A stretch of DNA of 63,532 nucleotides from Acidimicrobiia bacterium (GTDB lineage Bacteria > Actinomycetota > Acidimicrobiia > IMCC26256 > PALSA-555). The stretch covers positions 1 through 63,532 of the forward strand of contig DATDGU010000175.1 in NCBI GenBank assembly GCA_036521915.1, written 5' to 3'. Positions 42,274-61,072 of this stretch are shown here, piece by piece; position 1 is the stretch's first letter; each line of letters starts with the position of its first letter. Below the pieces are notes generated by a model. That model saw only the letters and a list, made by a program, of their open reading frames with translations, was not told the DNA's origin and made no database searches. Both the position numbers and the translations under genes were made by a program.

Positions 42274-42300
42274 GACTCGCGATCTGGGAGACCGCGAGTC
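42274..42300. repeat. hairpin repeat copy
   Basis: GACTCGCGATC-TGGGA-GACCGCGAGTC. Confidence 0.9.
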
Positions 42301-42349
42301 GGCGTCGCGGACCCGAACGCGCGTAGGCGTCAGCCGCGTCCGGATCTGA

Positions 42350-42529
42350 TCAGGTGGCCTCGACCTCTTCGATCGGCCAGGCCGCCGGAACCCGGAGGGT
42401 CGCGACGCCGTCCGGCGTTGTCGCGCCGACCAGGACCCGCATATCGCCGTCATTCTCGATCCTCTCGGCGTCGAACACGATCGGTGTCGAGCTCTCGCCT
42501 GAGCCGGGCAGCACGCGGTAGGTGGGCAT
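42350..42529 (-). CDS. small hypothetical protein (59 aa, below ORF-track cutoff)
   Basis: My own translation: MPTYRVLPGSGESSTPIVFDAERIENDGDMRVLVGATTPDGVATLRVPAAWPIEEVEAT*. High GC3, weak SD, bracketed by repeat copies at 42274 and 42667. Confidence 0.3.
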   Translation of the reverse strand: MPTYRVLPGSGESSTPIVFDAERIENDGDMRVLVGATTPDGVATLRVPAAWPIEEVEAT

Positions 42530-42666
42530 GGTCGTGAGCCTAGAAGGGGAATCGCTCTGCGGATCGGGCGGGGCGGTCAGACGGGCTCGAACTCGTCCAT
42601 GTGCTGGCGGGTACCGCTCATCAGCTGGGTGCGGACCTCGTGTGACCCGAGGGGGTTCCGCGGTTT

Positions 42667-42692
42667 ATCTCGCGGTCTATGGATCGCGAGTC
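42667..42692. repeat. hairpin repeat copy
   Basis: ATCTCGCGGTC-TATG-GATCGCGAGTC (outer two bases of the left arm differ). Confidence 0.8.
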
Positions 42693-42788
42693 AGCAACGC
42701 CCTGTCCGCGGGATGCCGCGAGTACCAGTGCAGTAGCGTCCGAACCCCAGTTCGGCGAGAGAACGAGCCAGCAGGTCGAGGAGGCACG

Positions 42789-43085
42789 ATGATCGGTGTC
42801 AACGTCATTTTTGACTACGACGGCGATTTTGATCGCTCGCGCGTCGTCGAAGTGGCCGAGAACGCCCGAGGGATGTTCGACGGCATGCCAGATCTGCGTT
42901 TCAAGTTCTTCACGTTCGACGAGAAAGAGCAGCGGGCAACGAATTTCTACGTCTGGGAATCGAAGGACGCAGCCGAGGCCTTCTTCTCGGAGGAGCTACG
43001 ACAGCGGGTAACCGGCCTTTACGGAGTCGGACCGAACATCGAGTTCGTGGAGATAGCCCAGATCGTCGACAACTCGGGTTCGTAG
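42789..43085 (+). CDS. YdhR-like putative monooxygenase (Dabb/ABM fold)
   Basis: ATG 42789 after GAGGAGG. 98 aa with the pattern ...GMPDLRFKFFTFDEKEQRATNFYVWESKDAAEAFF..., reminiscent of E. coli YdhR. Visibly lower GC3. Confidence 0.6.
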   Translation: MIGVNVIFDYDGDFDRSRVVEVAENARGMFDGMPDLRFKFFTFDEKEQRATNFYVWESKDAAEAFFSEELRQRVTGLYGVGPNIEFVEIAQIVDNSGS

Positions 43086-43250
43086 TTGCGCTGCCGTAGC
43101 AATTGCCATTAGTTGGATGACTGCACGGCATCAGCACAGCGAGCTGCCGCCAGCGCTACTTGCGTTGGTCGGGGCCTTGCTGGGTCACGACACCGGCGGG
43201 CTCACATCTGTTGGCTTCAGAAGTTCTGTCCAGCTCAACTGGCGTGGGGT

Positions 43251-43277
43251 GACTCGCGATCTGGTAGACCGCGTCCA
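43251..43277. repeat. hairpin repeat, right arm decayed
   Basis: GACTCGCGATC-TGGTA-GACCGCGTCCA. Confidence 0.6.
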
Positions 43278-43324
43278 GGTTCGGCCTCTGATGGCTGTGC
43301 CAACGCTTGGCGTGGGGGTGGTTC

Positions 43325-46300
43325 GTGACTGACACGCAGACGGCGACGGTCCTGTTCACGGACATGGTGGGTTCGACGGAACTGGCATCGCGTTTGGAAC
43401 CCGCGACCGGCGACCGGGTCCGGCAGACGCACTTCGGGGTTCTGCGCCGGGCGTTAGCGGCCACTGGGGGCTCGGAGGTCAAGGGAACGGGCGATGGAGT
43501 GATGGCCGTGTTTTCCTCGATGGCGTCAGCGTTGACATGCGCCGTTGCGATGCAGCAAGGCGTGGACGAAGAGAACCGTCGTTCCGGGGTTCCGGTGGGG
43601 TTGCGCGTCGGCATGAGTGTCGGGGAGGTCACCCCCGAAGACGCGGATTTCTACGGAGACCCGGTCATTGAGGCGGCCCGACTCTGCGCGCTCGCAGAAG
43701 GTGGGCAAATCCTCGTGACGGAGGCGGTGCGGGTCGTCGCTGGTCGCCGCGCCGCGCACCTCTTTATTGACTTGGGCGAGCGCGAGCTAAAGGGACTGCC
43801 GACACCGATCCCGGTCCTTGAGCTGGGTTGGGAGCCCCTCGCCGTGGAAGCAACGGTTCCGGGGGTCGTCCCCTTACCGGCTCGGCTGGCCCATCGACCA
43901 GCGGTAGGGGTGATTGGACGCGACCAGCAGCTCGGCTTGCTCGCGGACGCCGCGAAGCGGGTGGCGGCGGGGACCGGTCGTGAAGTGGTTCTCATTGGTG
44001 GTGAGCCGGGCGAGGGCAAGACAACTCTGGTAGCCGAGGCGGCCCGCACCATGCGAACCAACGGGATGACAGTGCTGCTAGGTCGCAGCGACGAGGACCT
44101 GGGCTCCCCGTACAAGCCCTTCGCAGAAGCGCTTCGCCATTACGTCGTTCATGCCGACGAGGATGTGCTCGCTTCCCATGTACGCGCACATGGCGGTGAA
44201 CTCGCCCTCCTCGTGCCCGCGCTGCGAGAGCGTGTCAGTGAGCTCCCAATGACGGTGAGCAGTGATGCCGAGACCGAGCGCTACCTGCTCTATAGCGCGG
44301 TTGCCGGGCTGCTGGACGGAGCGAGCGTTGACTCACCGATCGTTCTGGTGCTCGATGACCTGCATTGGGCAGACAAGCCCAGCCTGCAGCTGCTCCGATA
44401 CCTCGTTGCCCATGTCGCATCCAAGCGCCTGCTGATCTTGGGCACCTACCGCGACGCCGAACTCTCCACCTCGCATCCCCTGACGGAGACGCTCGCCGCA
44501 TTGCGCCGCGAGCCCGCCGTGACGCGGATCGACCTGAGGGGTTTGGACGACAACGGTGTCGTCCTCTTCATGGAGTCCGCGGCCGGACACGAGCTGGACG
44601 ACGACGCCCTGAAGCTTGCTCATGCGTTGTATCGGGAGACAGACGGCAACCCGTTCTTCGTAGCCGAAGTGCTGCGTCACCTGTCCGAGACGGGCGCCAT
44701 CGTGCGGGACGGCAGCGGACGCTGGGTCAACACCCGAGGGGATGAGGCGCCCGCGCTTCCCGAGAGCGTGCGCGAGGTGATCGGCGCGAGGGTGTCTCGG
44801 ATCGGCGGCGCCGCGACTGAGGTGCTATCGACTGCGAGCGTCATTGGACGGGACTTCGAGCTGGACCTGCTCGCCGAAGCGAGCGGACAGGACGAGGACC
44901 CTCTGCTCGACCTGCTCGACCAAGCCAAGGGCGCCGCGCTCGTCCGGGAACTCCCCGGCGGTCCTGGCCGCTACACCTTCGCTCACGCCCTCATCCAGCA
45001 CACGCTCTACGAGGATTTGGGAATCACTCGCCGCGCCCGCGCCCACCTCCAAGTCGGCGAAGCCTTGGAGCGGCTCCACGGCGACCAGCCGGCACGAATC
45101 AGCGAGCTCGCTCGACACTTCCTTCTTGCCAGCCGTCCGAGCGAGACCGAGAAGGCCAGCGTCTATGCCCGCCGAGCCGGCGACGCCGCGCTGGCGGCGC
45201 TCGCCCCCGACGACGCCCTCCACTACTACACCCAGGCCCTCGACCTCCTCGCCCAATGGACGACCGCCGATCCGGCCACGGTCATCGATCTGCAGATCGG
45301 ACTTGGCACGGCCCAGCGGCAAGCGGGCAAACCCGAGTTCCGAGCCACGCTCCTCGACGCGGCTCGCAACGCACGGCAGCACCACAAGACCGAGCGCCTG
45401 GTGGCTGCAGCGCTTGCCAACCACCGAGGATTCGTCGCCGCGCTCGGCGCCATCGATACCGAACGTGTCGAGATCCTCGAGGCCGCCCTCGAGGCTCTCG
45501 CAACCGCCGATAGCCCGCAGCGCGCCCGTGTCCTCTCAACGCTGTGTTCCGAACTCACCTTTGGCCCACTAGAGCGACGCCGTGCCCTGGCAACCGAGGC
45601 GAAGGCCATGGCTCGGCGTCTCGGCGACCCGGCGACGCTCGTCGCGGTCACCGACGACTGCGCGGTTGCCCTACGAATCCCCGCGCTTCTTGCCGAGTCG
45701 CTCGCCGATGAGAAGGACGCACTCGCACTGACCGAGCTGTTGGGGGATCCCGTCAGTCGGCTCTGGTGTGCGAGCAATCTCAAGATCGAAGCGGCGCGAG
45801 CCGGTGCCTTCGAGCTGTCCGACCAGAGCCTCGCCACCGTGACAGCAATCAGCGAAGAGCTCCAACAACCGCTCCTGCTCTGGATCGCGAGCTTCAACCA
45901 GGCATCCCAGGCGCTCCGACACGGCGACACGAGCCGAGCAGAAGAGCTCGCCACAAGAGCGCTCGAGGTCGCTGCCGACAGCGGCCAACCCGACGCTCTT
46001 GAGTTCTACGGCGTCCAACTCATGGAGATCCGATACCAGCAAGGCAGGATGGGAGAACTCGCATCGCCGGTCGCCGAAGTCGCCGAACAGAACCCCGGAT
46101 TGCCTGTCTATCGGTCGGTCCTGTGTTTGGCGGAGCTCGAGGCGGGCCACACGAATCGCGCCAGCAAGTTACTTGAGCAAGCAGCGAACGACCAGTACCC
46201 GCTCCCGATGGACACGTCGTGGCTTGCCGGCATGATCTGCTGGGCGCGCGTCGCCATTGAACTCGGTGCACCGGGACCGTCCGCGCAGTTGCTCGAGTTG

Positions 46301-46630
46301 CTCGTGCCGTACCACGGTCAGCTACAGGAGAGCGGTGCTGTTGTTCATGAGCCGGTTGCCGCGATTGTCGCCGGACTTGCTGGCGTCGTCGGTGACGTGT
46401 CGACAGCCGAAGGGTTCTTCCACGAGGCGAACGAGCTCAACGAGAAAGGAGCGATGAACCACGCCGACGCCCAAACCAAACTGTGGTGGGGGCGCACGCT
46501 TCTCGCGCGATCGGGGCCGGGGGATCGCGAGCAGGCCCGAAGCCTGCTGGAGCGCGCTCGGCGGACTGCGAAGGACCGCGGCTACACGGCAATCGAACGG
46601 AGGGCCGTCGCTGCGCTCGAGAACTGCTAG
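43325..46630 (+). CDS. class III cyclase domain - AAA/STAND NTPase - TPR-like repeat protein
   Basis: N-terminal cyclase (VLFTDMVGST, VKGTGDGVMAVF, YGDPVIEAARL), Walker A GGEPGEGKTTLV, Walker B IVLVLDDLHWAD, then about 600 aa of helical/TPR-like repeats. No C-terminal LuxR HTH. Start GTG 43325 (or 43307). Confidence 0.9.
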   Translation: MTDTQTATVLFTDMVGSTELASRLEPATGDRVRQTHFGVLRRALAATGGSEVKGTGDGVMAVFSSMASALTCAVAMQQGVDEENRRSGVPVGLRVGMSVGEVTPEDADFYGDPVIEAARLCALAEGGQILVTEAVRVVAGRRAAHLFIDLGERELKGLPTPIPVLELGWEPLAVEATVPGVVPLPARLAHRPAVGVIGRDQQLGLLADAAKRVAAGTGREVVLIGGEPGEGKTTLVAEAARTMRTNGMTVLLGRSDEDLGSPYKPFAEALRHYVVHADEDVLASHVRAHGGELALLVPALRERVSELPMTVSSDAETERYLLYSAVAGLLDGASVDSPIVLVLDDLHWADKPSLQLLRYLVAHVASKRLLILGTYRDAELSTSHPLTETLAALRREPAVTRIDLRGLDDNGVVLFMESAAGHELDDDALKLAHALYRETDGNPFFVAEVLRHLSETGAIVRDGSGRWVNTRGDEAPALPESVREVIGARVSRIGGAATEVLSTASVIGRDFELDLLAEASGQDEDPLLDLLDQAKGAALVRELPGGPGRYTFAHALIQHTLYEDLGITRRARAHLQVGEALERLHGDQPARISELARHFLLASRPSETEKASVYARRAGDAALAALAPDDALHYYTQALDLLAQWTTADPATVIDLQIGLGTAQRQAGKPEFRATLLDAARNARQHHKTERLVAAALANHRGFVAALGAIDTERVEILEAALEALATADSPQRARVLSTLCSELTFGPLERRRALATEAKAMARRLGDPATLVAVTDDCAVALRIPALLAESLADEKDALALTELLGDPVSRLWCASNLKIEAARAGAFELSDQSLATVTAISEELQQPLLLWIASFNQASQALRHGDTSRAEELATRALEVAADSGQPDALEFYGVQLMEIRYQQGRMGELASPVAEVAEQNPGLPVYRSVLCLAELEAGHTNRASKLLEQAANDQYPLPMDTSWLAGMICWARVAIELGAPGPSAQLLELLVPYHGQLQESGAVVHEPVAAIVAGLAGVVGDVSTAEGFFHEANELNEKGAMNHADAQTKLWWGRTLLARSGPGDREQARSLLERARRTAKDRGYTAIERRAVAALENC

Positions 46631-46704
46631 CTGCGCCTTGAATGTCAACCCGTCTAGCGATGCCGGGCTCCACGAGGAAGCCATTCGATGCCGACCGGGC
46701 GGGT

Positions 46705-46730
46705 GACTCGCGGTCTGGGGACGGCGCGTC
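46705..46730. repeat. hairpin repeat, right arm decayed
   Basis: GACTCGCGGTC-TGGGG-ACGGCGCGTC. In the convergent junction between the cyclase-STAND and RDD genes. Confidence 0.6.
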
Positions 46731-46827
46731 GGATCGGCCGCGGCAGCGAGCGCTCAGATCGGACGTGACGGCAGCAGCAGCGTCGACTCCATCGGGTCGA
46801 TGATTGCCCCAGATGAGGCCAGGACGA

Positions 46828-47289
46828 TCAGTCGTACACCACGGCCGTGTTCGCCGCGACGTCGTGCAAGGCGCGGTGCTCTCGTCCGATGACGATCCCG
46901 ACGAGCCCGAGACCGAGGATGAACGAGAAGGGGAACACCAGCGTCCGCACGGCGGCCTTCCCTGCATGGAGCCTCGAGCCGTCGCGACGGACGACCTTGA
47001 CACCGAGCAGTCGCATGCCGGGCGTCTGGCCGACGGATGCCCAGCAGACGAAGTAGTAGAGGAAGAGCCACACGACCTCTGCTGGCACTGCGATGGCCGT
47101 CGACACCTGGATGTGCAGGGCCTTGCCGGTGACGAAATCCACGATGGCGATAACGGTCACGGTGATGACGGCGAGCAGGAGGTGCGAGACAAAGAGGTCA
47201 ACGATCCATGCCACGAGCCGGCTCAGCGGGCCGGCGTAGCACCCGCGCCGCGCCGTTACGGGGTCGTCAGGCTGTTTGACTTGCGTCAT
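46828..47289 (-). CDS. RDD family membrane protein
   Basis: Start MTQVKQPDD at 47289. LSRLVAWIVDLFV and GQTPGMRLLGVKVVRRDG are RDD hallmarks. Confidence 0.85.
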   Translation of the reverse strand: MTQVKQPDDPVTARRGCYAGPLSRLVAWIVDLFVSHLLLAVITVTVIAIVDFVTGKALHIQVSTAIAVPAEVVWLFLYYFVCWASVGQTPGMRLLGVKVVRRDGSRLHAGKAAVRTLVFPFSFILGLGLVGIVIGREHRALHDVAANTAVVYD

Positions 47290-47599
47290 CGATCTTGGGT
47301 CCTGGAGACGGACGCAGTGGCCGCCAATCGGGCGCGCGCCGCAGCACCCGGTCCACGATCCCGGTCGTCCAACCATCCAGGCGGGCGGCCTCATCTTGGG
47401 CGGCGTCAAGGGTGCGCCTCGATACTCGGCGGACCGATCGCTCGACCACGGCCTCGAGGTCGATGCGCTCGAGGATCGCGTTCATGTCGATCTGTTCGAG
47501 AACAGCGTTCAGATCGATGTGGCTGATCACCTGCTGGACGACCACGTCGACGGGCATCAGGAGCCTGTCGAGGGGCTTTGGATGTTGATCGTTTGCCAT
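47267..47599 (-). CDS. hypothetical protein with 3 x 9-aa tandem repeat
   Basis: Start MANDQHPKP at 47599. IDLNAVLEQ-IDMNAILER-IDLEAVVER is encoded by 3 x 27 nt at 47438-47518. 23-nt overlap with the RDD gene start. Confidence 0.55.
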   Translation of the reverse strand: MANDQHPKPLDRLLMPVDVVVQQVISHIDLNAVLEQIDMNAILERIDLEAVVERSVRRVSRRTLDAAQDEAARLDGWTTGIVDRVLRRAPDWRPLRPSPGPKIDDASQTA

Positions 47600-47727
47600 G
47601 ACCTGACTGTGTCGCACACGGGGCGCGCTGACGTCCAATCCGTTTGGACCTGGAGCGCTCTTGGGGTCCGGGAGCCAGAGGTCCCAACCTCTAGCTGCGA
47701 GCGCCAGGCGGCGCTCTGAGTGCCCTC

Positions 47728-47754
47728 GACTCGCGATCTCGGAGATCGCGAGTC
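47728..47754. repeat. hairpin repeat copy
   Basis: GACTCGCGATC-TCGGA-GATCGCGAGTC, effectively a 13+13 perfect palindrome around one G. Confidence 0.9.
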
Positions 47755-48051
47755 AGGGAGCGGGCGCCTTCCGAACTGAGTCGGCAAAGTCGCGGGTTGT
47801 CCGGCAAAGCCTGGACGAGCTATTCGGGAAGGCGATCACCCGGGAAGGACCGGACGGGATGGATCTCGTAGTCGAACAGGCCCGCCCGAACCCGACGTCA
47901 GCCGCTCGCGCTGCCCGTGCCCGCCGGCGCGGACGTGGCGTGGCACGGCTGGCCGTGACACACGTCGACGACGCGACCGTGGGCTTCGATGTAGCCCTCG
48001 AGCAGCGCCAGGCGTTGGCCCGCCGCTCGACTTGAGTCGATACTTGTCACC

Positions 48052-50730: not shown

Positions 50731-50734
50731 CCCC

Positions 50735-52077: not shown

Positions 52078-52085
52078 TCGTGGCT

Positions 52086-53393: not shown

Positions 53394-53420
53394 GACTCGC
53401 GATCTCGAGGATCGCGAGTC
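53394..53420. repeat. hairpin repeat copy
   Basis: GACTCGCGATC-TCGAG-GATCGCGAGTC (perfect, extends to GCGACTC...GAGTCGC). Confidence 0.9.
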
Positions 53421-53723
53421 GCACGCCACGCGGCTTGAGCCAACCGCTGATGGCGGCAGGCCCTCTTCCGAGAGGCCCCGGGCGAGGATTTCGAGACCCC
53501 GAGCGCGCCCGGGGTACCCCATGATCGCCGCGCCGGCCCGTTGCCCAGACTGGGTGCGCACCCAGTCCTCCCCATTACGGGCTGGCCGGCGAAAGTTGAC
53601 CGGCGCTAATGCCGATCAACAACCTGAACTTAAGCACGGAGAACCCTGGCGTGTCTGTAGCGGCAGACACAGTTCCAGCGTGCTCGTCCATACACACCGG
53701 TGGGGGGCGCCGAAAGCGAGTCG

Positions 53724-54377
53724 CTATCGGGCGAGCGCGCGGAGCCGGTCGAGGTCGATGATGTCGATGTGCCCGCGGCCAAGTGCGATGGCACCCTGCT
53801 GGGCGCTCCGCTGAAGTACACGATTGACGGTTGGCCGTGTCGTGCCCGCCATGAGGGCTAGGTCCTCTTGCGTGAGATCGAGCCGCCCATTCTCATCCTG
53901 CCAACCCCACTCCTCTGCAATCTCGATCAACCTGCGGAGTAGCCGTGTCTCGACAGGGAAGTACAGCGCTTCCACGAGGACATCCGTCAATCGGCGGAGC
54001 CGGGCCGCGAGCGCCTCGACCAGGACGCTATTCACCGACGGGTAGGCCTGACGTAGTTCGTTGAACCGTTCACCAGTCAGGACGAGCGTCTCGGCTGGTT
54101 CGAGACAGACGACGGTCGCATTTCGTCGTGCCCCCGGCTCCAGCAGCGCCAGCTCCCCGAAGAAGTCGCCCGGGCCGACCACCATCAAGGTGACGATGTC
54201 TCCGCCTGACGTCGAGGACTGCACCGCCAGACGACCTCGTGCCACGAGATGGAACTCGTCGCCGGCGTCTTGCTGGTGAAACACGACCTCGCGGCGCTGG
54301 AACCGGCGCGTCCGCGTAGACGCGAGCAATTGCTCGCGGTCCCCTTCGCTCAAGCCCTCGAGCAGTGCCCACGTCAT
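53724..54377 (-). CDS. Crp/Fnr family transcriptional regulator
   Basis: Start MTWALLEGL at 54377. cNMP cassette GDFFGELALLEPGARRNATVV plus C-terminal HTH LTQEDLALMAGTTRPTVNRVLQ. Confidence 0.9.
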   Translation of the reverse strand: MTWALLEGLSEGDREQLLASTRTRRFQRREVVFHQQDAGDEFHLVARGRLAVQSSTSGGDIVTLMVVGPGDFFGELALLEPGARRNATVVCLEPAETLVLTGERFNELRQAYPSVNSVLVEALAARLRRLTDVLVEALYFPVETRLLRRLIEIAEEWGWQDENGRLDLTQEDLALMAGTTRPTVNRVLQRSAQQGAIALGRGHIDIIDLDRLRALAR

Positions 54378-54651
54378 CTGTTCAGCTCGACGCCTTTCTC
54401 TGCCGGCGCAGCAAGCCACTTCATTGGCACGCTACCCGACGACGTCCGGATCGAGTCCACGCATCGGTCGAAGCTCGAAGGACTACCGCTGCTTGGGGGT
54501 GGGTTGGCCGGCGCGTGGTGGCGATGCGGGTGCGAGATACCCAACCAAGATGACGGTCTCGCTGGGGCGATTGAGTCGCGTCGCCCTGTCGCGTGCAGCC
54601 TGAGCCGGATCACACCATCAAAGAGTCGCACCACTCCTTTAGGGTCGATCT

Positions 54652-55104
54652 GTGCCACCGCCAGCGGAGATCGCCTATAGAGAGGCAGTTCGTTCCCTCG
54701 AGGGGCAAGCTCGAGACCTCGAGAACATTCGCTCCCACGTGAGCATCACCCTCTCGGCTGGGGGTATCGCAGCCGCCTTCCTCGGGGCACTCACGAAGGC
54801 TCACGGACCAGCCTTCTGGGTGGCGGTCGCAGCGTTTGGTTTGGCGGCGGTCGCGACGATCATCGCGTACTGGCCCGTAACGTTTGCGTGGGACTTCGAC
54901 GGCTATGAGCTCGTCAGCAACTACGTCGATCGAAAGCCTCCTGCGACGGAAGACTTCGTCATGCGGGAGCTCGCGGTTCATGCAGCTGACGATTATGGCG
55001 AGAACCGCCAGCGACTCAACCGGCTCTTCACCCTCCAGTCCTTCGCCCTCCTCGCCTTCGGTGTAGAGGTCGGGGCTCTACTCATCAACCTCGCGGTAAG
55101 GTGA
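54652..55104 (+). CDS. hypothetical 3-TM protein (N-terminal helix, TM hairpin, soluble insert, C-terminal TM)
   Basis: 150 aa. The segment ...ARDLENIRSHVSITLSAGGIAAAFLGAL-TKAHGPA-FWVAVAAFGLAAVATIIAYW... ends with a C-terminal TM LFTLQSFALLAFGVEVGALLINL. GTG start, weak SD, lower GC3. Confidence 0.6.
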   Translation: MPPPAEIAYREAVRSLEGQARDLENIRSHVSITLSAGGIAAAFLGALTKAHGPAFWVAVAAFGLAAVATIIAYWPVTFAWDFDGYELVSNYVDRKPPATEDFVMRELAVHAADDYGENRQRLNRLFTLQSFALLAFGVEVGALLINLAVR

Positions 55105-55349
55105 TCGTCGTGGCGAACCGCCCGAAGATCGAAAAGAAGCCGGTCCCGAGCCGCCCGCCCACGAGCACGCCGAATCCCTCGCACTTCGAGAAGCGCGGTG
55201 GCAGGCCGTGGGGCGGCGGTCAGGAACCACGCCCGCGCCCCGGCAGGTAGCCCACACCGAGTCCGCTGCAGAGCGGCTCCCTTTGCCGAGCGGGGGCGTG
55301 CATCACCCATGACTGGTGCACGTCTCGACAGTTTGCGGCTGCAACGACC

Positions 55350-55376
55350 GACTCGCGATCTGGGAAACCGCGAGTC
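55350..55376. repeat. hairpin repeat copy
   Basis: GACTCGCGATC-TGGGA-AACCGCGAGTC. Confidence 0.9.
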
Positions 55377-55541
55377 GTCATCGGACGATCCAGGGGTTGG
55401 GCGTCTTGGCGGTGAGCGCTCTTCCTCATGCCCGGTCCTCCCGTTGCGCGTCTCGGGTCCTGTGGCGAACATGGGTGCGGAGCTGAGGAGTGCCCAGCCC
55501 ACGCTCGTGGGCAGACGCCCGAGACCCCCGGGGAGAGGTGC

Positions 55542-56423
55542 ATGGCAGCGGCGCAGGAGTCGATTGCGGTGCTGGGAATCGGCGCTATGGGCCATGGCTT
55601 GGCCAGCAGCGCCTTGCGCGCCGGCCTCCCTACGGTCGTCTGGAACCGCCGACCGGACGCGACTCGAGACCTCGCGGCGCGCGGTGCGGTCGTCGCTGAC
55701 AGCGCCGCCGACGCGGCACGGCGGGCCGGAATCGTCGTGACGATGGTGACCGACGCGGCCGCGGTCGCCTCGATCGCTCACGACCAAGGGATGCTCGCCG
55801 CGCTCGCACCGGGGGCGATCTGGGCGCAGATGAGCACGATCGGCGTGGCCGGCATCGAGCGGGTTGCGGCGATGGTCGAAGCCGAACGCCATGACGTCAT
55901 GCTCGTTGACGCGCCGGTGTCGGGAAGCAAGGACCCCGCCGAGCAAGGTGCGCTGACGATCTTTGCCTCGGGGCCGGACGACGCCCGCCCCCGCCTTCGT
56001 CCTCTCTTCGACGCGCTCGGGCAGCGCACGATCTGGGTCGGAGCGGTCGGGGCGGGGACCCGGCTCAAGCTCGTGAACAACACGTGGCTAGCGTTCGGCA
56101 ACGAGGCGATTGCCGCGTCAGTGGCGCTTGCTCATCGGCTTGGACTGACCACTGAAACCGTGGCCGAGGCGATCGCGGAGGGGCCGCTGATCTCGCCGTG
56201 GCAGGCGAGCAAGCTGCAACGGATCGCCAAGAACGACTTCTCGCCGCAGTTCGCGCTATCGCTCGCCCTGAAGGACATCCGACTCGCGCGTGAAGCGGCT
56301 GCCGAGCTGGCCGCCCTCGGCTGCCTGGCCGATGAATGGCAAGGGGCAGTCGATCAAGGACTTGGCGACTTGGACCTGACCGCCGTCACGCGCGCGTTGG
56401 AGGAGCAGAGAGGAACGTCATGA
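55542..56423 (+). CDS. NAD(P)-dependent oxidoreductase, 3-hydroxyisobutyrate/6-phosphogluconate dehydrogenase-like
   Basis: ATG 55542 after GGGAGAGG. IAVLGIGAMGHGLASSALRAG Rossmann fold and a DAPVSGS motif. Confidence 0.85.
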   Translation: MAAAQESIAVLGIGAMGHGLASSALRAGLPTVVWNRRPDATRDLAARGAVVADSAADAARRAGIVVTMVTDAAAVASIAHDQGMLAALAPGAIWAQMSTIGVAGIERVAAMVEAERHDVMLVDAPVSGSKDPAEQGALTIFASGPDDARPRLRPLFDALGQRTIWVGAVGAGTRLKLVNNTWLAFGNEAIAASVALAHRLGLTTETVAEAIAEGPLISPWQASKLQRIAKNDFSPQFALSLALKDIRLAREAAAELAALGCLADEWQGAVDQGLGDLDLTAVTRALEEQRGTS

Positions 56424-57385
56424 CGCTGATCGGCTACACGATGATGTGTGAGCAAGCGGGCCCGAAGCAGCTCGTGCGAGATGTCGCCCTCGCCGAGGAA
56501 GCCGGGTTCGATTTCGCGGTGATCAGCGACCACTATTTCCCGTGGCTGAGTGCCCAAGGGCATTCCCCGTACGCCTGGAGTGTGCTGGGCGCAGCGGCTC
56601 AGGCGACTGACCACATTCCATTGATGACCTACGTCACCTGCCCCATCCGGCGATATCACCCAGCCGTCGTCGCGCAGAAGGCAGCCACCATGCAGCTCTT
56701 GAGCGACGGACGGTTCACGCTCGGGCTCGGTGCGGGCGAGAACCTGAACGAGCACATCGTCGGCGGCAGCTGGCCCATTGCCGGCGTGCGGCACGAGATG
56801 CTCGCCGAAGCCGTGGAGATCATCCGGGCACTCTGGGGTGGAGAGACGGTGACGTACCGGGGCGAGCACTTCGAAGTTGAGTCCGCCAAGATCTGGGATC
56901 TTCCCGACACCGCGCCCCAGATCGGCATTGCAGTGTCGGGAGCCGCGAGCTGTCGCCTCGCGGGGCGTCTGGCTGACCTCATGATCGCCGTGCAGCCGAA
57001 GGCCGAGCTGGGCGAGATGTTCGATAGCGCGGGGGGCTCCGGCAAGCCGAGGATCAGGCAGATCGCGCTCTCGTACGATCCCGATCCGCAGATCGCGGTG
57101 AAGCGGGCGATGGACCAGTTCCGTTGGTTCACTGCCGGGTGGCGGGTCAATGCCGAGCTTCCCCTCCCGGCGTCGTTCGATGAGGCGTCACACCCGGTGC
57201 GCGAGGACGACGTGTCGGCCCAGATGCCCTGCGGTCCCGATGTCGCGCGGCACGTGGCCGGCGTTCGCGAATTCCAGAGCGCCGGGTTCACCCACATCGC
57301 GTTGGTTCAAGTGGGCGCCGAGACCCAGGAGCAGTTCATCGCCTGGGCCGCAGGCGAGCTCCTCCCCGCCCTTCGGGTCTCGTGA
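56420..57385 (+). CDS. LLM-class F420-dependent oxidoreductase (G6PD-related TIGR03557-like)
   Basis: ATGA overlap with the upstream stop. MTLIGYTMMCEQAGPKQLVRDVALAEEAGFDFAVISDHYFPW is typical of this family. Confidence 0.9.
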   Translation: MTLIGYTMMCEQAGPKQLVRDVALAEEAGFDFAVISDHYFPWLSAQGHSPYAWSVLGAAAQATDHIPLMTYVTCPIRRYHPAVVAQKAATMQLLSDGRFTLGLGAGENLNEHIVGGSWPIAGVRHEMLAEAVEIIRALWGGETVTYRGEHFEVESAKIWDLPDTAPQIGIAVSGAASCRLAGRLADLMIAVQPKAELGEMFDSAGGSGKPRIRQIALSYDPDPQIAVKRAMDQFRWFTAGWRVNAELPLPASFDEASHPVREDDVSAQMPCGPDVARHVAGVREFQSAGFTHIALVQVGAETQEQFIAWAAGELLPALRVS

Positions 57386-57475
57386 ACATCTGAAGGTGAC
57401 AGCGCGCTGCGGTACGCCGAGCCCTCGGACCGGATGGCGTAGCCCGGGTCGCGACGTCGACCGAGAGTGGTATGC

Positions 57476-57502
57476 GACTCGCGGTCTGGGACACCGCGAG
57501 CC
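57476..57502. repeat. hairpin repeat copy
   Basis: GACTCGCGGTC-TGGGA-CACCGCGAGCC. In the convergent LLM/P450 junction. Confidence 0.85.
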
Positions 57503-57543
57503 ACTACCCCGCGTAAGAAGGCCGGTATCTCGTCTCGCGCGTT

Positions 57544-58779
57544 CTAGATGCGCCCTAATCCTGCTGTGGCAGCGGTCAGCTTGACCGGTAGTTGGCGGGG
57601 TCCGTTGGCCCAAAACACCGGGACGGGTTCGCGTCGGTAGGGCTCGTCGACCCTTGCTCGAGAGACGCGATCCAGGAAGACCTCCAGTGCGATTCGGCCT
57701 TCGAGTCTCGCGAGGGAAGCGCCGGGACAGACATGGGGTCCTCCGCCGAAGGCGAGATGATCCTTGGGGTTCGGGCGGTCCAGCCGGAAGTCGTCCGGAT
57801 CGATGTAGTTGCTCGCGTCACGATTTGCCGACGCGATGCCGAACCCGACCTTGACGCCCGCGGGGATCCTGACGTCGTCGATCGTGGCTTCCACCAGGCA
57901 ATCGCGCAACAGCACGTGGATCGGCGAGTCGTGGCGGAGCGACTCCTCGACCACGGTCGGGACCAGTCCCGGATCCATCCGCAAGCGCCCGAGGAGGGCG
58001 GCGTCACTGCACACCGTCTCGAGCATGTTGGCGATCAAGTGGCGCGTTGTCTCGTTCCCAGACATCAGCAAGAAGGCGAGCTGCGTGCGCATTTCAAGGT
58101 CAGTAAGAGACTCCCCATCAACACTCGTATTGATGAGCCGCGTCACGAAGTCGTCCGGTGGGTCAGACGAAGCCTTGCGTTCGGCAATCATCGCATCGAG
58201 GTAGGCCGCGAAATCGGGTGCCACCCCAGCCAAACCCTCGCCCTCGACTCCGTCCTCTCTACGATTCTTCGTCGCGTACGCGGACTGCACCACAAGATCG
58301 GACCATTCAGCGAAGCGGGCATGATCAGCCGGATCGACGCCGAGGAGATGTGCGATGACGGTCGCGGGAATTGGTGTCACGTAATCAGCCACCAAATCGC
58401 CACAGCCGTGCGCGATGAGCGGGTCGAGCAACTCGTTACAAAGGCGCCGGGCGAACGGCTCAACGCGGCCGATCCGATGCTGCGCCACCGCGGAGTTGAT
58501 GATTCGGCGGATCTTGCCGTGGCGCGGTTCAGAGATCTCGCTGATGAGTTGCTCCTCGGACGGCACCGTGACTCCCGCCGCGCGGAAGCTCGCCTGGAAC
58601 ACTCCGATCTCTTTGGTTGCCGCCAGCACGTCATCGTGACGAGCGAGAAAGTAGGCACCCGACTCAGTTCGCGAAACCGGGCATTTGGCGCGCAGTTGGG
58701 CCAGAAGCTGATATGGCACGCCCGCTGAGGCATCGAATGGGTCAGTGACCACCGCCGGAGATCCTCCCACCACCGGCAC
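57544..58779 (-). CDS. cytochrome P450
   Basis: I-helix LLMSGNETT, EESLR (ExxR) and heme loop FGGGPHVCPGASLAR. Confidence 0.95.
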   Translation of the reverse strand: MPVVGGSPAVVTDPFDASAGVPYQLLAQLRAKCPVSRTESGAYFLARHDDVLAATKEIGVFQASFRAAGVTVPSEEQLISEISEPRHGKIRRIINSAVAQHRIGRVEPFARRLCNELLDPLIAHGCGDLVADYVTPIPATVIAHLLGVDPADHARFAEWSDLVVQSAYATKNRREDGVEGEGLAGVAPDFAAYLDAMIAERKASSDPPDDFVTRLINTSVDGESLTDLEMRTQLAFLLMSGNETTRHLIANMLETVCSDAALLGRLRMDPGLVPTVVEESLRHDSPIHVLLRDCLVEATIDDVRIPAGVKVGFGIASANRDASNYIDPDDFRLDRPNPKDHLAFGGGPHVCPGASLARLEGRIALEVFLDRVSRARVDEPYRREPVPVFWANGPRQLPVKLTAATAGLGRI

Positions 58780-58855
58780 GATGGAGCCAGACCCCGCTCA
58801 GCCCGCGGGTCGGCTGGCTATTCGGTGAGATGCGGCGATCGGACATCGCGGTCGT

Positions 58856-58883
58856 GACTCGCGATCTGGGGGACACCCGCGGA
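58856..58883. repeat. hairpin repeat, right arm decayed
   Basis: GACTCGCGATC-TGGGG-GACACCCGCGGA. Confidence 0.55.
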
Positions 58884-58956
58884 TGGAGCGTGCTCCGCGA
58901 GTCGCCGACGCCTTGAGATCTTGCCGGATGTGTCGAGAGGGCGGCGATCGCCGTGC

Positions 58957-59268
58957 TTATCGGCGCTTCGCCTTTCCACGAGCCACTGTGTCTTTGAAGG
59001 ACTTCAGTGCTGTAATGCGAACACCCTTCGAGGCTGGACGGGCCTCAAACCACTGCTCCACACCTGTGAACGGATTCCTGCCCTTTCGCCGCGGCCTAGC
59101 AGCGATGTCCTTGCGCGCGAACTTGCAGAAGCCCGTGAGGGTTATGGTCTCACCCGTCTGAACGGTCGACACCACGACACGTTCAAACGCCTCAACGAGT
59201 CTCTTCGCCTCCGACTTGGAGACGTCAAGTTCTTCGGAGACGGCCTGGACAAATTGCGACTTGTTCAT
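58957..59268 (-). CDS. HU/IHF-family DNA-binding protein
   Basis: Start MNKSQFV at 59268 after GAGAGG. MNKSQFVQAVSEELDVSKSEAKRLVEAFERVV...ARPRRKGRNPFTG. TAA stop and visibly A/T-richer third positions. Confidence 0.85.
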   Translation of the reverse strand: MNKSQFVQAVSEELDVSKSEAKRLVEAFERVVVSTVQTGETITLTGFCKFARKDIAARPRRKGRNPFTGVEQWFEARPASKGVRITALKSFKDTVARGKAKRR

Positions 59269-59419
59269 GGTGTTCCTCTCTGGCGGTCGTCCCCATTGTC
59301 TAACGCTGTCGTAGGGCGAGAGTTGGGATATCGGCAGTCGCATACCCATCACCAGGACGCCACAGAACAATCCTGCCCCCGCTCCGTCCTGACCTCAGCC
59401 CACGCTGATGAGCCCTTGC

Positions 59420-59446
59420 GACTCGCGGCTAGTCAGATCGCGAGTC
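59420..59446. repeat. hairpin repeat copy (first of tandem pair)
   Basis: GACTCGCGGCT-AGTCA-GATCGCGAGTC. Confidence 0.8.
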
Positions 59447-59452
59447 GGTGGT

Positions 59453-59479
59453 GACTCGCGGTTTGGGTGACCGCGAGTC
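59453..59479. repeat. hairpin repeat copy (second of tandem pair)
   Basis: GACTCGCGGTT-TGGGT-GACCGCGAGTC, 6 nt after the previous copy. Confidence 0.9.
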
Positions 59480-59736
59480 GGCGATCGCGCTCGGCAAACG
59501 ACATCCCTTGTGTCCCCGGCAGCCGGTCTGTTGTATCGCATGCGCTCTGGCGATGCCTCACGAGCCTGACCCCACGTTTGATATGACTGCCAGTGTTGGT
59601 ACAGGCTGGCGGTGGCTCGACCCAAGAGGCTCCGTCTGTGTTCGTGATGGTCGAGTCGTGCTGTCCAACGCAAAGGCGACGTGATTGCCGAGGCGCCCGT
59701 CGTCCAGATCGTGCTCACCGAAGGCCTGCTCAAGGA

Positions 59737-60384
59737 ATGACCCCGACCAAAACTCCCGTCGCCGGCCGAAAGGCGCGGGCTTTTCTGCACAAGGCCGACC
59801 CGGTGCTCGGTCGGATCATCGATGCGCGCCCGGACTTCCGCCCGCGCGCCTGGCTCGACGAGCTGCCTCCGCTCGACGCCTTCGGAACGCTGATCTTCCA
59901 GGTCGTTGGCCAGCAGCTTTCGGTTCGTGCGACGCGGACGATCGTGTCCCGCATTGAGGAGCACTTCGGAGGACGGTTGCCGTCACCGGCCGAGCTGCTC
60001 GCTGCGGATCCCCACGTGCTGCGCGCCAGCGGGCTCTCCGCCCGCAAGGGCGAGACCCTGCGGGTGCTGGCGGAACGATTTGTCGATGGTCGTCTCAGCG
60101 ATGAGGTCTTGTCGCAGATGACCGACGACGAGGTCGAGGCAGCCCTGACCGAGGTTCCGGGCGTCGGGCCGTGGACGGCGCACGGCTTCTTGCTCGTGGC
60201 CCTCGACCGGCCCGACGTGTTCCTGTCCGGCGACGTTGCCCTCCGACGTGCCATCCAACGCGCCTACGGACTCGACCACCCTCCCACCGAAGACGAGATG
60301 CTCGAGCTGGCGGAGCGCTGGCGTCCGTACCGAAGCCTTGCCGTGAGCTACCTGTTCGCATCCGAATACGACGGAGGGACCTGA
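59737..60384 (+). CDS. DNA-3-methyladenine glycosylase II (AlkA-like, HhH-GPD)
   Basis: HhH motif LTEVPGVGPWTAHGFLL and catalytic Asp region FLSGDVALRRA. Start ATG 59737 inside ORF 59593..60384. Confidence 0.85.
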   Translation: MTPTKTPVAGRKARAFLHKADPVLGRIIDARPDFRPRAWLDELPPLDAFGTLIFQVVGQQLSVRATRTIVSRIEEHFGGRLPSPAELLAADPHVLRASGLSARKGETLRVLAERFVDGRLSDEVLSQMTDDEVEAALTEVPGVGPWTAHGFLLVALDRPDVFLSGDVALRRAIQRAYGLDHPPTEDEMLELAERWRPYRSLAVSYLFASEYDGGT

Positions 60385-60986
60385 TGAAACGAGCAGACCA
60401 CCGTGTCGGAATCATCGGCGCCGGCCGGCTCGGCCAGGCGATGGCACGCACGGCGCTACGCGCCGGCCGCGCCGTCGTCATCGCCAACAGCCGCGGCCCC
60501 GAATCGCTGGCGTCGGTAGTCTCGGCGCTGGGCGACGGAGCGTCGGCGGGGACCGTGGCCGACGCCGCAGCATCCGGAATCGTCGTCATTGCCGTGCCCT
60601 GGGACAGGGTCCCGAAGGCCCTCGAGGCAGTCCGATGGAACGGTCAGATCGTCATCGACGCCACGAACGACTTCGACCCCCGGGACCTCCATGGAAGGAC
60701 ATCGAGCGAGGTCGTCACCGACCTTGTCGGCGATGCGGCCGTGGTGAAGGCGGCGAACACGTTGGTCGCTGCGCTGCTCGGTACCGATCCGCGCGAGGCG
60801 GGAGGCCAGCGTGTGCTCTTTCTCTCAGGCGACGACCTCGATGCGAAGACCGAGGTCAGCGCACTCTTCCAGGACGCAGGCTTCTTCACCATCGACCTCG
60901 GCGATCTGATCACCGGCGGCCAGATGCAACAGGTCGGCGCTCCGTTAGCCGGCGCCAACCTCATTCGCCTTCCCGACCCCAACTAG
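60384..60986 (+). CDS. NADPH-dependent F420 reductase (NpdG-like)
   Basis: ATG 60384 overlaps the upstream TGA. RVGIIGAGRLGQAMARTALRAG Rossmann fold. IAVPWD, VIDATN and VVKAANT family pattern. Confidence 0.85.
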   Translation: MKRADHRVGIIGAGRLGQAMARTALRAGRAVVIANSRGPESLASVVSALGDGASAGTVADAAASGIVVIAVPWDRVPKALEAVRWNGQIVIDATNDFDPRDLHGRTSSEVVTDLVGDAAVVKAANTLVAALLGTDPREAGGQRVLFLSGDDLDAKTEVSALFQDAGFFTIDLGDLITGGQMQQVGAPLAGANLIRLPDPN

Positions 60987-61034
60987 GCCACGGCCGTCCA
61001 TCCTGAGCTGGACTGATGCCGTATGCCGGCCCGC

Positions 61035-61061
61035 GACTCGCGGTCTGGGGGACCGCGAGTC
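61035..61061. repeat. hairpin repeat copy (perfect)
   Basis: GACTCGCGGTC-TGGGG-GACCGCGAGTC. 11-bp perfect stem. In the convergent NpdG/hydrolase junction. Confidence 0.95.
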
Positions 61062-61072
61062 ACACAGATGCG

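Follow-up and report, generated by a model that had tools for sequence, protein, structure and literature searches.

A 29-bp palindromic site recurs between small gene units along the window (the whole 63,532-nucleotide stretch of DNA analysed). In a variable stretch of chromosome it separates nearly all units of one or two genes, whose order and content change from one related genome to another, a picture that resembles an integron-like cassette array using a different kind of site. We give a probability of roughly 45% to the reading that they serve such an array as recombination sites, acting as duplex DNA, or as module boundaries. The palindromes would be where small mobile gene modules ("cassettes") meet in a chromosomal array, large and hypervariable, that uncultured Acidimicrobiia of one soil and peat lineage have in common. 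A dimeric sequence-specific protein would recognise the site as duplex DNA, reading two identical 12-bp half-sites, with the 5-bp asymmetric centre setting site direction. Recombination at the sites would excise, insert, replace and reorder the intervening units of one or two genes, in a working mode much like that of integrons or Xer-dependent dif modules. Recombinase action on the sites, the duplex substrate and the identity of the protein are three things that we infer.

The pattern GACTCGCGRTC-N5-GAYCGCGAGTC with ≤3 mismatches was used to search the window. The 13 matches, compared with 0.01 expected (mean of dinucleotide shuffles), bear out the original prediction of a single repeat family beyond chance. 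A PWM built from 174 copies gave 15 matches at a cut-off of ≥12 bits and 0-1 in Markov-shuffled windows. All 15 matches are intergenic, as predicted, in a window that is 84% coding by GC3-based gene calls. A wider set drawn from 11 Acidimicrobiia/Actinomycetota MAG species and soil or peat metagenomes contains 479 copies in 0.98 Mb, about one per kb, and 41 of the 479 fall inside rough gene calls (77% coding). The site family is conserved across the lineage: arm positions are 96-99% invariant in the 11 MAG species, whose shared genes there are 72-93% identical. Rfam holds no family matching the 29-nt site and a literature search found no published description matching it; the consensus had earlier gone unrecognised as a named repeat family.

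The site has the form Y-GACTCGCG-R-TC / T-s-s-s-G / GA-Y-CGCGAGTC-R, two identical 12-bp half-sites (Y-GACTCGCG-R-TC) around the asymmetric centre. The element had been described as 27 nt long; a preceding Y and a following R extend it to 29 nt. The flanks of aligned copies are not conserved outside these 29 nt, so there is no element body and the label "MITE-like" fails. The centre, said to be usually TGGGR, has exactly that sequence in about 8 of 18 window copies, and its first-position T is nearly constant. The copies in the window are as follows.

9769..9797, no strand assigned: full site, 1 mismatch, 38.7 bits; centre TCACA, polarity ambiguous; in the GC-rich left part, 15 nt past the stop of gene 9398-9754(+)
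18864..18892, + strand: full site, 37.8 bits; 31 nt past the stop of 18300-18833(+), an adenylate-cyclase-domain gene
23991..24019, + strand: full site, 43.8 bits; divergent junction of ADH 22790-23800(-) and kinase 24100-24588(+)
38469..61062, + strand: cassette-like array, 16 sites or remnants between 1-3-gene units of unrelated accessory functions
38469..38497, + strand: the array's first site, degenerate (T10G with A18C), 20.2 bits; 36 nt from the start of NuoF-like gene 37000-38433(-)
39124..39151, no strand assigned: remnant, right arm (CGCGAGTC) only
42273..42301, + strand: full site, 43.0 bits
42667..42693, + strand: variant site, 4-nt centre, two left-end mismatches; divergent junction; read directly
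43250..43278, + strand: degenerate site, right arm decayed, 19.2 bits; 29 nt ahead of cyclase-STAND gene 43307-46630(+)
46705..46731, + strand: remnant, left arm and centre intact, right arm decayed; convergent junction
47727..47755, + strand: full site, 42.2 bits; divergent junction; left boundary of the GH94 unit
50734..50762, + strand: degenerate site, 16.0 bits; 4 nt past the GH94 stop; right boundary of the GH94 unit
52085..52113, + strand: full site, 44.5 bits; end of the two-gene SHOCT unit (about 50884-52113)
53393..53421, + strand: full site, 41.6 bits; convergent junction of a cNMP-binding gene and a Crp-like gene
55349..55377, + strand: full site, 41.9 bits; tandem junction
57475..57503, + strand: full site, rare C17 variant, 32.7 bits; adjoins the P450 unit
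58856..58904, + strand: site interrupted by 20 nt inserted between positions 19 and 20; marks where the P450 and HU units meet
59419..59480, no strand assigned: tandem doublet, two full sites 6 nt apart, 32.9 and 40.2 bits; divergent junction
61034..61062, + strand: full site, 43.6 bits; convergent junction; last site seen in the window

Every copy originally called clean was confirmed, with the corrections that the first starts at 9770 rather than 9771 and that 42667 has a 4-nt centre. Among those called decayed, 38470, 43251 and 50735 can still be recognised as full sites (16-20 bits); only the right arm is left at 39124 and only the left arm plus centre at 46705, and 58856 is split by its 20-nt insertion. 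The supposed relic at 3091-3119 scores below threshold and is not counted. Fourteen of the listed copies do lie within 42.3-61.1 kb. The array part of the window has a GC content of 0.63-0.68 compared with 0.71-0.75 in the left part, and its genes have miscellaneous accessory functions. The median inter-site interval is 948 bp, and single-gene intervals (151) and two-gene intervals (63) predominate. In the single complete chromosome (3.55 Mb, n = 1) all 12 blocks with exact sites lie at 1.76-2.04 Mb, so that the copies found span 0.28 of 3.55 Mb. Doublets and triplets of sites occur in tandem; the doublets, which carry no cargo, make up 73 of 362 inter-site intervals (~20%). They are not what a simple excision/integration model would predict, and they count against the recombination reading.

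The two arms vary independently. Stem pairs 9/19 and 0/28 are variable and unlinked (GC 69, GT 41, AC 41, AT 21; chi-square p = 0.78 and 0.74), and AC equals GT; the variable stem positions show neither covariation nor wobble asymmetry. Stem deviations often affect one side only, and compensatory double changes occur at about chance expectation. Conservation therefore acts on sequence rather than base pairing, and there is no pairing constraint on the 29-nt site. Of the two options first proposed, a REP/MITE-like hairpin family or a shared protein-binding site, the second fits better because the arms vary independently without compensatory covariation. Two compensatory doubles are present, G6C + C22G (MFD05705) and T10G + A18C (window 38470), and count against the recombination-site reading.

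These doubles would sit well with REP-like selfish hairpins that fold in single-stranded DNA and are copied or maintained in trans by an HUH/Y1 (RAYT-like) enzyme, or one like it, from a single gene elsewhere in the genome, with shuffling as a by-product of identical repeats or hairpin-directed insertion. We consider this doubtful. The 12-bp stem and 5-nt loop fit REPs and IS200/IS605 end hairpins, which have comparable size and shape; the high copy number and intergenic location also agree, and the tandem doublets and triplets recall BIME clusters. Against it stand the missing covariation and wobble asymmetry, and the 29-nt site lacks a GTAG-type REP head. No Y1 transposase was found in the Pfam-annotated loci, the window or a crude motif search of ~1 Mb. 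The description as a dispersed REP was half right: the copies cluster in one region, an accessory array of lower GC, instead of being dispersed over the genome, and neither the GTAG head nor a RAYT was seen.

The asymmetric centre gives each site a polarity, and this polarity is locally uniform. Adjacent confident sites have the same polarity in 100 cases and different polarity in 28 (p = 1e-10), with agreement of 19/20 in MFD05705 contig 15 and 11-13/13 in the window; REPs in BIMEs typically alternate. Site polarity is not associated with the strand of flanking genes, and is a property of the array, not of genes. All three junction types are used, as had been claimed: the 356 classified junctions comprise 102 convergent, 174 tandem and 80 divergent (22%). 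Occurrence at all three indicates that the sites are not a set of independently evolved terminators, a point on which the original prediction holds.

A bidirectional transcript-end hairpin, acting in RNA as a factor-independent terminator, insulator or 3'-end stabiliser whose own copy arrives with each acquired gene, is quite improbable. The predicted hairpin is strong (-17 to -24 kcal/mol), the median distance from a site is 78 nt to stop codons and 158 nt to start codons, the 102 convergent junctions suit such a role, and terminators without U-tracts have been reported in high-GC actinobacteria. The 22% of sites between divergent genes have nothing to terminate, however (23992, 42667, 47728 and 59420/59453 in the window), and no T-tract follows the sites, T being 16% of the following 10 nt, which equals background. 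A stem function would also permit compensatory drift, whereas the sequence is fixed across species and its variable positions ignore pairing, and polarity is independent of transcription direction. Under the recombination-site reading, a transcribed site folding into a strong hairpin could still, incidentally, stabilise or terminate transcripts.

Sites coincide with synteny breakpoints. The window and MFD05705 contig 15 share ~90% identical, site-bounded blocks in different order. Homology with MFD05705 over window 39715-42304 stops at the site 42273..42301, the SHOCT unit there directly follows the NuoF-like gene, and the P450 and HU units are non-adjacent there. The rare C17 variant and the centre of site 57475..57503 also occur in the MFD05705 copy of the P450 unit, and the GH94 unit is common to the window, MFD05705 and MFD02248. 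The NuoF-like gene/site boundary is found in two other genomes. The position of site 23991..24019 is conserved in PLJD01000070 and L157, where the intergenic DNA is unalignable and the right-hand neighbour is different. Two MAGs share an 895-bp unit at 96.5% identity; the similarity reaches no further than the site on either side, and this unit and its neighbour stand in opposite order in the two MAGs. Gene adjacency is conserved in 5/117 cases across a site and 25/111 without one (p = 5e-5). Even without a site, adjacency is poorly conserved (about 22%), which counts against the recombination-site reading. At 20 one-side-homologous junctions, agreement at variable site positions falls from 88% in the proximal arm to 77% in the centre and 65% in the distal arm (baseline ~52%), which places breakpoints inside the site. 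BLAST alignments tend to extend into the conserved site, which in part predetermines that blocks end at sites; the tests of adjacency and of arm co-inheritance escape this bias and are based on 20-230 observations and rough gene calls. Recombination was not seen directly: no strain-level presence/absence pair and no circular junction was found.

At the best-resolved junction the upstream site is wholly different and identity begins just after position 28, which suggests cleavage at the foot of a REP-like hairpin. Some junctions suggest a crossover in the centre and others one at the outer edge of the site, and the latter position would favour a single-strand hairpin mechanism. Partner sites carry different centres; a classical tyrosine recombinase requires matching ones.

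The breakpoints also bear on the reading that the array serves a DNA-binding protein with a nucleoid-associated, insulating or silencing role. This lineage-specific dimer would coat or mark the accessory region at each intergenic site, for instance to organise, silence or insulate acquired genes or to structure one chromosomal domain like matS/MatP, and the sites would travel with modules without being recombination substrates. The half-sites behave like independent duplex recognition elements, the sites occupy a single chromosomal region of the complete genome, they are kept at orthologous positions despite diverged intergenic surroundings, and every junction type is occupied. This account is nevertheless unlikely: it leaves the breakpoints inside sites, the lower conservation of gene adjacency across sites and the conserved, locally uniform centre polarity unexplained. 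Half-sites of 12 bp with 10 near-invariant positions would be long for a helix-turn-helix operator, and no protein emerged as a candidate.

Pfam scans of nearly all gene calls found no RAYT or transposase in the window, as originally stated. The window also has no recombinase, so the enzyme of the recombination-site reading must act in trans. In L114 and L171 a tyrosine integrase makes up one of the units bounded by sites, and homologues down to 62% identity at five further loci are all among sites. Because L176 and L177 are near-identical, these five loci represent four distinct contexts, in three of which a site lies 0-66 nt past the homologue's stop codon. For two homologues of 56-57% identity, 17-21 kb of sequence contained no site. 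The integrase scores 39.7 with the integron-integrase model (cut-off 265 bits). This clade of ordinary tyrosine integrases, neither IntI nor XerC/D, is the one candidate enzyme that was found, and a candidate only; its link to the sites may reflect a common host lineage. There are no extra conserved arm sequences at the integrase-adjacent site, and a motif search of ~0.45 Mb of genome-derived array sequence found no recombinase. Overall the original interpretation is partly supported; it missed the locally uniform polarity, the lineage-wide site and the coincidence with breakpoints of module shuffling.

Sedentary chromosomal integrons such as the Vibrio superintegron share with this array the long series of mostly single-gene accessory units, one lineage-specific palindromic repeat in one orientation and one chromosomal region, and units reshuffled and replaced between related genomes. 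Integron attC sites are 55-140 bp, imperfect and structure-conserved, with R''/L''/L'/R' boxes, extrahelical bases and GTTRRRY, whereas the sites here are 29-bp, near-perfect, sequence-conserved palindromes in which GTTRRRY is absent. No IntI was found, genes occur in either orientation relative to the sites, and the conserved array boundary is a NuoF-like gene without integrase, attI or Pc. The pdif/dif modules of Acinetobacter plasmids (XerC/XerD), dif, loxP and FRT have in common with these sites two 11-12-bp arms around a short asymmetric centre and duplex-type behaviour with arms varying independently, and pdif modules are likewise small site-bounded gene modules in varying contexts. The sampled loci contain no ATAA-N6-TTAT site, and the palindrome does not resemble dif in sequence. 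The identical arms of the 29-bp site imply a single protein species, not a XerC/XerD pair; the centre measures 5 nt and the site as a whole is of odd length. Sites flanking pdif modules are oppositely oriented, whereas those here are mostly direct and run through hundreds of kb of a chromosomal array. REP/BIME elements with RAYT are also short, GC-rich extragenic palindromes with many copies, some tandem clusters and stable transcript hairpins; they differ in their GTAG head, RAYT and pairing covariation, and in being genome-wide and alternating, whereas the sites here are regional, mostly uniform in orientation and tightly coupled to gene-module boundaries. Terminator-like hairpin families such as the mycobacterial TRIT motif, reportedly described with the RNIE terminator predictor, likewise consist of one conserved hairpin, without a canonical U-tract, that follows many genes of a high-GC actinobacterium. 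Going by the description of that type, the sites here are set apart by their additional presence in divergent junctions, their array-level polarity and their position at synteny breakpoints.

The pattern GACTCGCGRTC-N5-GAYCGCGAGTC gave 13 matches with up to 3 mismatches in the 63.5-kb window, whereas dinucleotide shuffles predict 0.01. With a position weight matrix derived from 174 copies, 15 window sites scored 12 bits or more, compared with 0 to 1 in shuffled windows. The G+C content of the window is 65–75%. Genes were called by third-position GC and then annotated with Pfam, and all window sites are intergenic by these calls though 84% of the window is coding. Reading the window at each copy confirmed the coordinates of the original prediction apart from small corrections: the first copy is present but starts at 9770 rather than 9771, and the supposed relic at 3091 was unsupported on inspection. 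The copy at 42667 has a centre of 4 nt, and those at 39124 and 46705 are half-sites. Fourteen copies are located in 42.3–61.1 kb, as had been claimed, and when gene calls and copies in this stretch are read together, a copy is found in 14 of the 17 intergenic gaps that exceed 50 nt. The Rfam comparison proposed by the original prediction detected no family in the window at gathering thresholds. The 8-mers GACTCGCG and CGCGAGTC occur outside sites 4 times in the whole window compared with about 14.7 expected from first-order Markov shuffles, a scarcity that may reflect half-site avoidance in coding DNA. An uptake-sequence-like single motif was ruled out because orphan half-sites are unenriched, depleted if anything. 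CRISPR was ruled out by the irregular, kilobase-scale spacing and by doublet spacers of 6–20 nt, and a phage origin was discarded after megablast of window 40–63.5 kb against a phage collection returned no match.

The 174 aligned copies, from the window and related loci, form one family with the consensus Y-GACTCGCG-R-T-C / T-s-s-s-G / G-A-Y-CGCGAGTC-R over exactly 29 nt (positions 0–28), and the flanks on either side have background composition. MITEs have a body of about 50–500 bp with terminal inverted repeats and target-site duplications. Because conservation is confined to 29 nt, the site is neither a MITE nor any longer element, and its original description as MITE-like does not hold. 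Ten positions per arm are invariant at 96–99%; the others vary by transition polymorphisms, at positions 0, 9 and 11 and at the mirror positions 28, 19 and 17. Positions 9 and 19 vary independently (GC 69, GT 41, AC 41, AT 21; chi-square p = 0.78), as do positions 0 and 28 (p = 0.74). In a set of 204 copies (up to 5 mismatches), stem deviations on one side only are frequent (5–15 per position), and compensatory doubles are about as numerous as chance would give. When copies are oriented by their centre, G-T is not tolerated over A-C in a strand-specific way. Two compensatory doubles are present, at window 38470 and at position 2503 of the related MAG MFD05705, so the case against a pairing constraint is statistical, not absolute. 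By these counts, the sequence of each half-site is under constraint, whereas no constraint on pairing of the two halves can be detected. Such a pattern is expected where a symmetric protein dimer recognises duplex DNA, and is unlike that of a structure-selected RNA or single-strand DNA hairpin; it points to recognition of the site as duplex. At window 58856–58904, a 20-nt insertion splits the site between positions 19 and 20. The right arm of this site aligns with its counterpart in the MFD05705 site in front of the HU unit; the alignment suggests that this joint is imprecise. In one sub-family of sites the centre reads TTGCTCAT (reverse complement ATGAGCAA), and almost every one of these sites forms part of a tandem doublet or triplet. 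A small gene (M-S-N-R-E-S) could begin with ATGAGCAACCGCGAGTC.

Sites with a TTGCTCAT centre
L016:6900-6926, in MFD05705 contig 15 (342900)
L004:1222-1248
L004:2070-2096
L046:5089-5115
L012:6289-6315
L174:1345-1371

In a collection with one genome per species (185,579 species), 48 blocks of 8 kb contained an exact match to the pattern; 44 of them belong to 11 Actinomycetota/Acidimicrobiia MAGs of peat and soil origin. The remaining 4 blocks are single matches in Nocardia (two), Microbacterium and a Polyangiaceae MAG. These look like chance matches or ordinary hairpins rather than part of the array family. The pair from Nocardia are orthologous and make up a longer perfect palindrome.

Isolated exact matches
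L009:4023-4049, Nocardia
L018:2808-2834, Nocardia
L038:2698-2724, Microbacterium radiodurans
L005:5123-5149, Polyangiaceae

The window is absent from this collection, and its closest relative there is MFD05705 with about 88–93% identity in shared blocks. A metagenome scan recovered at least 120 stretches with the pattern, and a viral scan (IMG/VR) gave one match, inside coding sequence, that looks like chance. Altogether, 142 contigs totalling 0.98 Mb yielded 479 sites when up to 3 mismatches were allowed. In OY970233.1 (3.55 Mb), the sole complete chromosome in this set, 12 of 12 exact-site blocks fall at 1.76–2.04 Mb, within 0.28 Mb of sequence close to the midpoint of the record (loci L004, L028, L046, L010, L041, L043, L019, L048 and L021), with at least 57 copies in the 72 kb sampled. 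Each draft MAG has its sites in one or two contig regions. Sites are thus concentrated by region, and the distribution on the complete chromosome does not bear out their original description as dispersed. No dif-like motif that would mark 1.76–2.04 Mb of OY970233.1 as the terminus was found in the sampled loci, and GC skew and strand bias of the sampled blocks were uninformative.

The G+C content is 0.68–0.75 in window 1–37000 and steps down to 0.63–0.68 in the array (38000–63532). The left part has metabolic and respiratory genes (cytochrome bd, GH15, MFS and a DEAD-box helicase with a cold-shock domain). Pfam annotation shows the right part to be an assortment of unrelated genes: fatty-acid desaturase, RDD proteins, GNAT, a cyclase-STAND regulator, a GH94 enzyme, SHOCT, cNMP-binding, Crp-like, luciferase-like, P450, HU and HhH-GPD proteins, an F420 oxidoreductase, a hydrolase, a CMD protein and an ECF sigma factor. 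Both inside and outside the array there are genes paired by paralogy or by a shared domain.

Paralogous or domain-sharing gene pairs in the window
13519-14160(-) and 51337-52077(+), SHOCT proteins
41131-41706(-) and 46828-47409(-), RDD proteins
18300-18833(+) and 43307-46630(+), adenylate-cyclase domains
52645-53115(+) and 53724-54377(-), cNMP-binding/Crp-like proteins

The units of related arrays carry many anti-phage defence-type genes, from the families DruA, GmrSD, Eco57I/N6_Mtase, SLATT_4, PycTM, deaminases, Nuc_deoxyrib_tr and NACHT/AAA_16 STAND.

Defence-type genes in related arrays
L174:3684-11424
L175:1-9016
L175:11911-16190
L171:14326-16708
L170:19019-19630

Consecutive sites are separated by a median of 948 bp, a spacing on the scale of a gene cassette. 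One gene is present in 151 intervals, two in 63, more in 44 and none in 104, and 73 of the 104 without a gene belong to tandem doublets or triplets whose sites are at most 100 bp apart. Each site has a direction, given by its asymmetric centre. Adjacent confidently oriented sites have the same polarity in 100 cases versus 28 opposite (78%, p = 1e-10), with agreement of 19/20 in MFD05705 contig 15 and 11–13/13 in the window. Site polarity has no relation to the strand of the flanking genes. Polarity is thus a local property that belongs to the array and not to transcription units, which argues against terminator or operator as the primary function. An inversion involving the GH94 gene was dropped as an example of polarity tied to cassette orientation, the site centre being almost symmetric. 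Intrinsic (Rho-independent) terminators combine a GC-rich hairpin with a U-tract at the 3′ ends of transcription units. The hairpin is present here, with a predicted −17 to −24 kcal/mol in RNA, and sites lie a median of 78 nt from a stop codon and 158 nt from a start codon. However, T makes up 16% of the 10 nt 3′ of the site, no T-tract follows it, and 80 of 356 sites lie in divergent junctions. The junction types (102 convergent, 174 tandem and 80 divergent) are near random expectation. Bidirectional RNA terminator or stabiliser hairpins are a very unlikely explanation of the family, while an RNA hairpin role at least as a side effect is likely given the predicted folding energy. A binding array for a nucleoid or insulator protein is also quite unlikely as the explanation.

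Comparison of the window with MFD05705 showed that blocks of about 90% identity end at sites and that their order differs. The SHOCT pair (window 50884–52113) directly follows the NuoF-like gene, the conserved left boundary of the array, in MFD05705, and two other units occupy that place in the window. The P450 and HU units are neighbours in the window and lie about 1.7 kb apart in reversed order in MFD05705. An 895-bp unit of two other MAGs is 96.5% identical from site to site with unrelated outer flanks, and its order with the neighbouring unit is swapped between the two. BLAST extends into any conserved site, so two tests independent of alignment ends were used. Among genes that had a homologue at 70% identity or more in another genome, the neighbour across a site was kept in 5 of 117 cases versus 25 of 111 without a site between (Fisher p = 5e-5). 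Arm co-inheritance was measured at 20 junctions with homology on one side of the site only, 9 of them with confident polarity. Agreement at variable positions fell from 88% in the arm beside the shared block through 77% in the centre to 65% in the far arm, over a baseline of about 52%, a gradient that places the breakpoints within the 29 bp or at its far edge. Several pairs of 98–99% identity switch between the far arm and the centre and the best-resolved pair switches exactly at the outer edge of the site; 20 junctions are too few to choose between a crossover at the centre and one at the outer edge. The site at 23992, upstream of an ADH gene, is kept in PLJD01000070 and in locus L157, where the surrounding spacer no longer aligns and the far neighbour differs. 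None of the sampled loci form near-identical pairs suited to show strain-level cassette gain or loss. Synteny breaks are enriched inside sites, and are inferred to come from enzymatic site-specific recombination rather than from sporadic homologous or illegitimate exchange between the 29-bp repeats.

Pfam scans of the window gene calls detected no recombinase, transposase or RAYT, in agreement with the original prediction that RAYT and transposase genes are missing from the window. Motif searches found no recombinase in 0.45 Mb of genome-derived array sequence and one tyrosine integrase (Phage_int_SAM_3 + Phage_integrase) in about 0.5 Mb of metagenome loci, where it forms a unit between two sites of an array (L114, L171-173). 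Homologues were fetched by protein similarity alone, and those of 62–74% identity, at five loci, all lie among sites. Loci L176 and L177 are 99.7% identical, so the five represent four distinct contexts, three of which have a site 0–66 nt 3′ of the stop codon. No sites were found in 17–21 kb around two homologues of 56–57% identity. The array integrase scores 39.7 bits against TIGR02249 (integron integrase; cut-off 265) and falls far below the XerC/XerD NCBIfam cut-offs, and its closest solved relatives are generic phage/ICE-type integrases and XerA. Integrase-proximal sites carry no attP-like or other extra conserved sequence beyond the 29 nt. Other cassette genes likewise remain within arrays across genomes, so a shared host lineage could explain the association of the integrase with the sites, and this protein is only a candidate for the enzyme that acts on them. 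IS110 transposases occur near arrays, and L176 and L177 differ by a 1.44-kb IS110-family insertion (L176:606-2044 versus L177:602); IS110 was rejected as the agent because the insertion point is not in a palindromic site. RAYT/HUH genes were absent from the Pfam-annotated loci L170-L177 and from about 1 Mb scanned with a crude HUH motif. A family of REP-like hairpins, acted on by an HUH enzyme that escaped detection, is an unlikely explanation of the palindromes.

The palindromes are best interpreted, with a probability of about 0.45, as protein-recognised duplex sites where small gene modules are joined and exchanged. In function they would amount to a cassette array resembling an integron or dif modules, but with another kind of site and, should the candidate prove correct, another recombinase as well. 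Two features are problems for this cassette interpretation. Classical tyrosine recombination requires identical centres in partner sites and, contrary to this, the site centres are not identical; and empty tandem doublets are common. It is a tentative and rather doubtful proposal that the arrays constitute an undescribed non-integron gene-cassette platform in Actinomycetota (Acidimicrobiia), with at least 100 one-gene modules over 100–300 kb of chromosome bounded by a 29-bp duplex palindromic site and exchanged by a recombinase other than IntI, which might be the tyrosine integrase clade carried in cassettes (L114, L170-L177). Such a platform would be mechanistically independent of attC hairpin recombination. 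If the sites are recombination substrates, integron-like collecting and reshuffling of single genes would proceed through another site and another enzyme in a lineage that is abundant yet uncultured in soil and peat. This would broaden the known routes to accessory gene pools, here defence genes, regulators and oxidoreductases, and would provide a compact pair of 29-bp site and recombinase as a possible tool for high-GC hosts. Even under ordinary readings, the motif is a lineage marker that delimits an accessory region and explains MAG breaks or mis-assembly there.

Searches of the literature (the motif; integrons or REPs in Acidimicrobiia/Actinobacteria; hypervariable regions) and of Rfam found no description of the site, and it lacks defining features of attC/IntI, REP/RAYT and pdif/Xer elements, of intrinsic terminators and of MITEs. 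REPs are extragenic imperfect palindromes of 20–40 nt with tens to hundreds of copies per genome, and the 29-nt intergenic site resembles them in its numbers on one chromosome (at least 57 in 72 kb). REP palindromes have a conserved GT(A/G)G-type head at the 5′ end, whereas the site begins with Y-GACT and has no such head. The RAYT is an IS200/IS605-like Y1 transposase whose gene is flanked by REPs of the same genome, and the stem of a single-strand hairpin substrate is expected to be kept by compensatory changes; the site differs in its independent stem positions, chance-level compensatory doubles and regional distribution. The geometry fits a loxP/FRT/dif-like core, which has 10–13-bp inverted arms and a 6–8-bp asymmetric overlap identical in partner sites, as 12-5-12 or as 10-7-10 with the inner TC/GA counted in the centre, but the centres here differ between sites. 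A dif-like site is 28 bp with distinct XerC and XerD arms, and pdif modules are flanked by oppositely oriented sites. Here both arms are identical and unrelated to dif, and 78% of adjacent confident sites share polarity. No ATAA-N6-TTAT motif was found in 0.45 Mb, and dif/Xer was ruled out by the missing dif-like motif together with the low XerC/XerD scores of the integrase. The integron attC is an imperfect palindrome of about 55–140 bp with R″ (RYYYAAC)/L″...L′/R′ (GTTRRRY) boxes and extrahelical bases; the site is instead a near-perfect 29-nt palindrome without GTT(RRRY) or conserved flanks. An IntI-type integrase with the IntI-specific insertion adjoins attI at one end of an integron, whereas the window has no recombinase and its array is bounded on the left by the NuoF-like gene. 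Classical integrons are not known to occur in Actinomycetota. Integron arrays have co-oriented repeats and mostly single-gene, promoterless cassettes co-oriented with them. The repeats here are co-oriented (100 versus 28) and most units hold one gene, but the genes lie on either strand, unrelated to site polarity. In its working, the system appears most like an integron array or dif modules.
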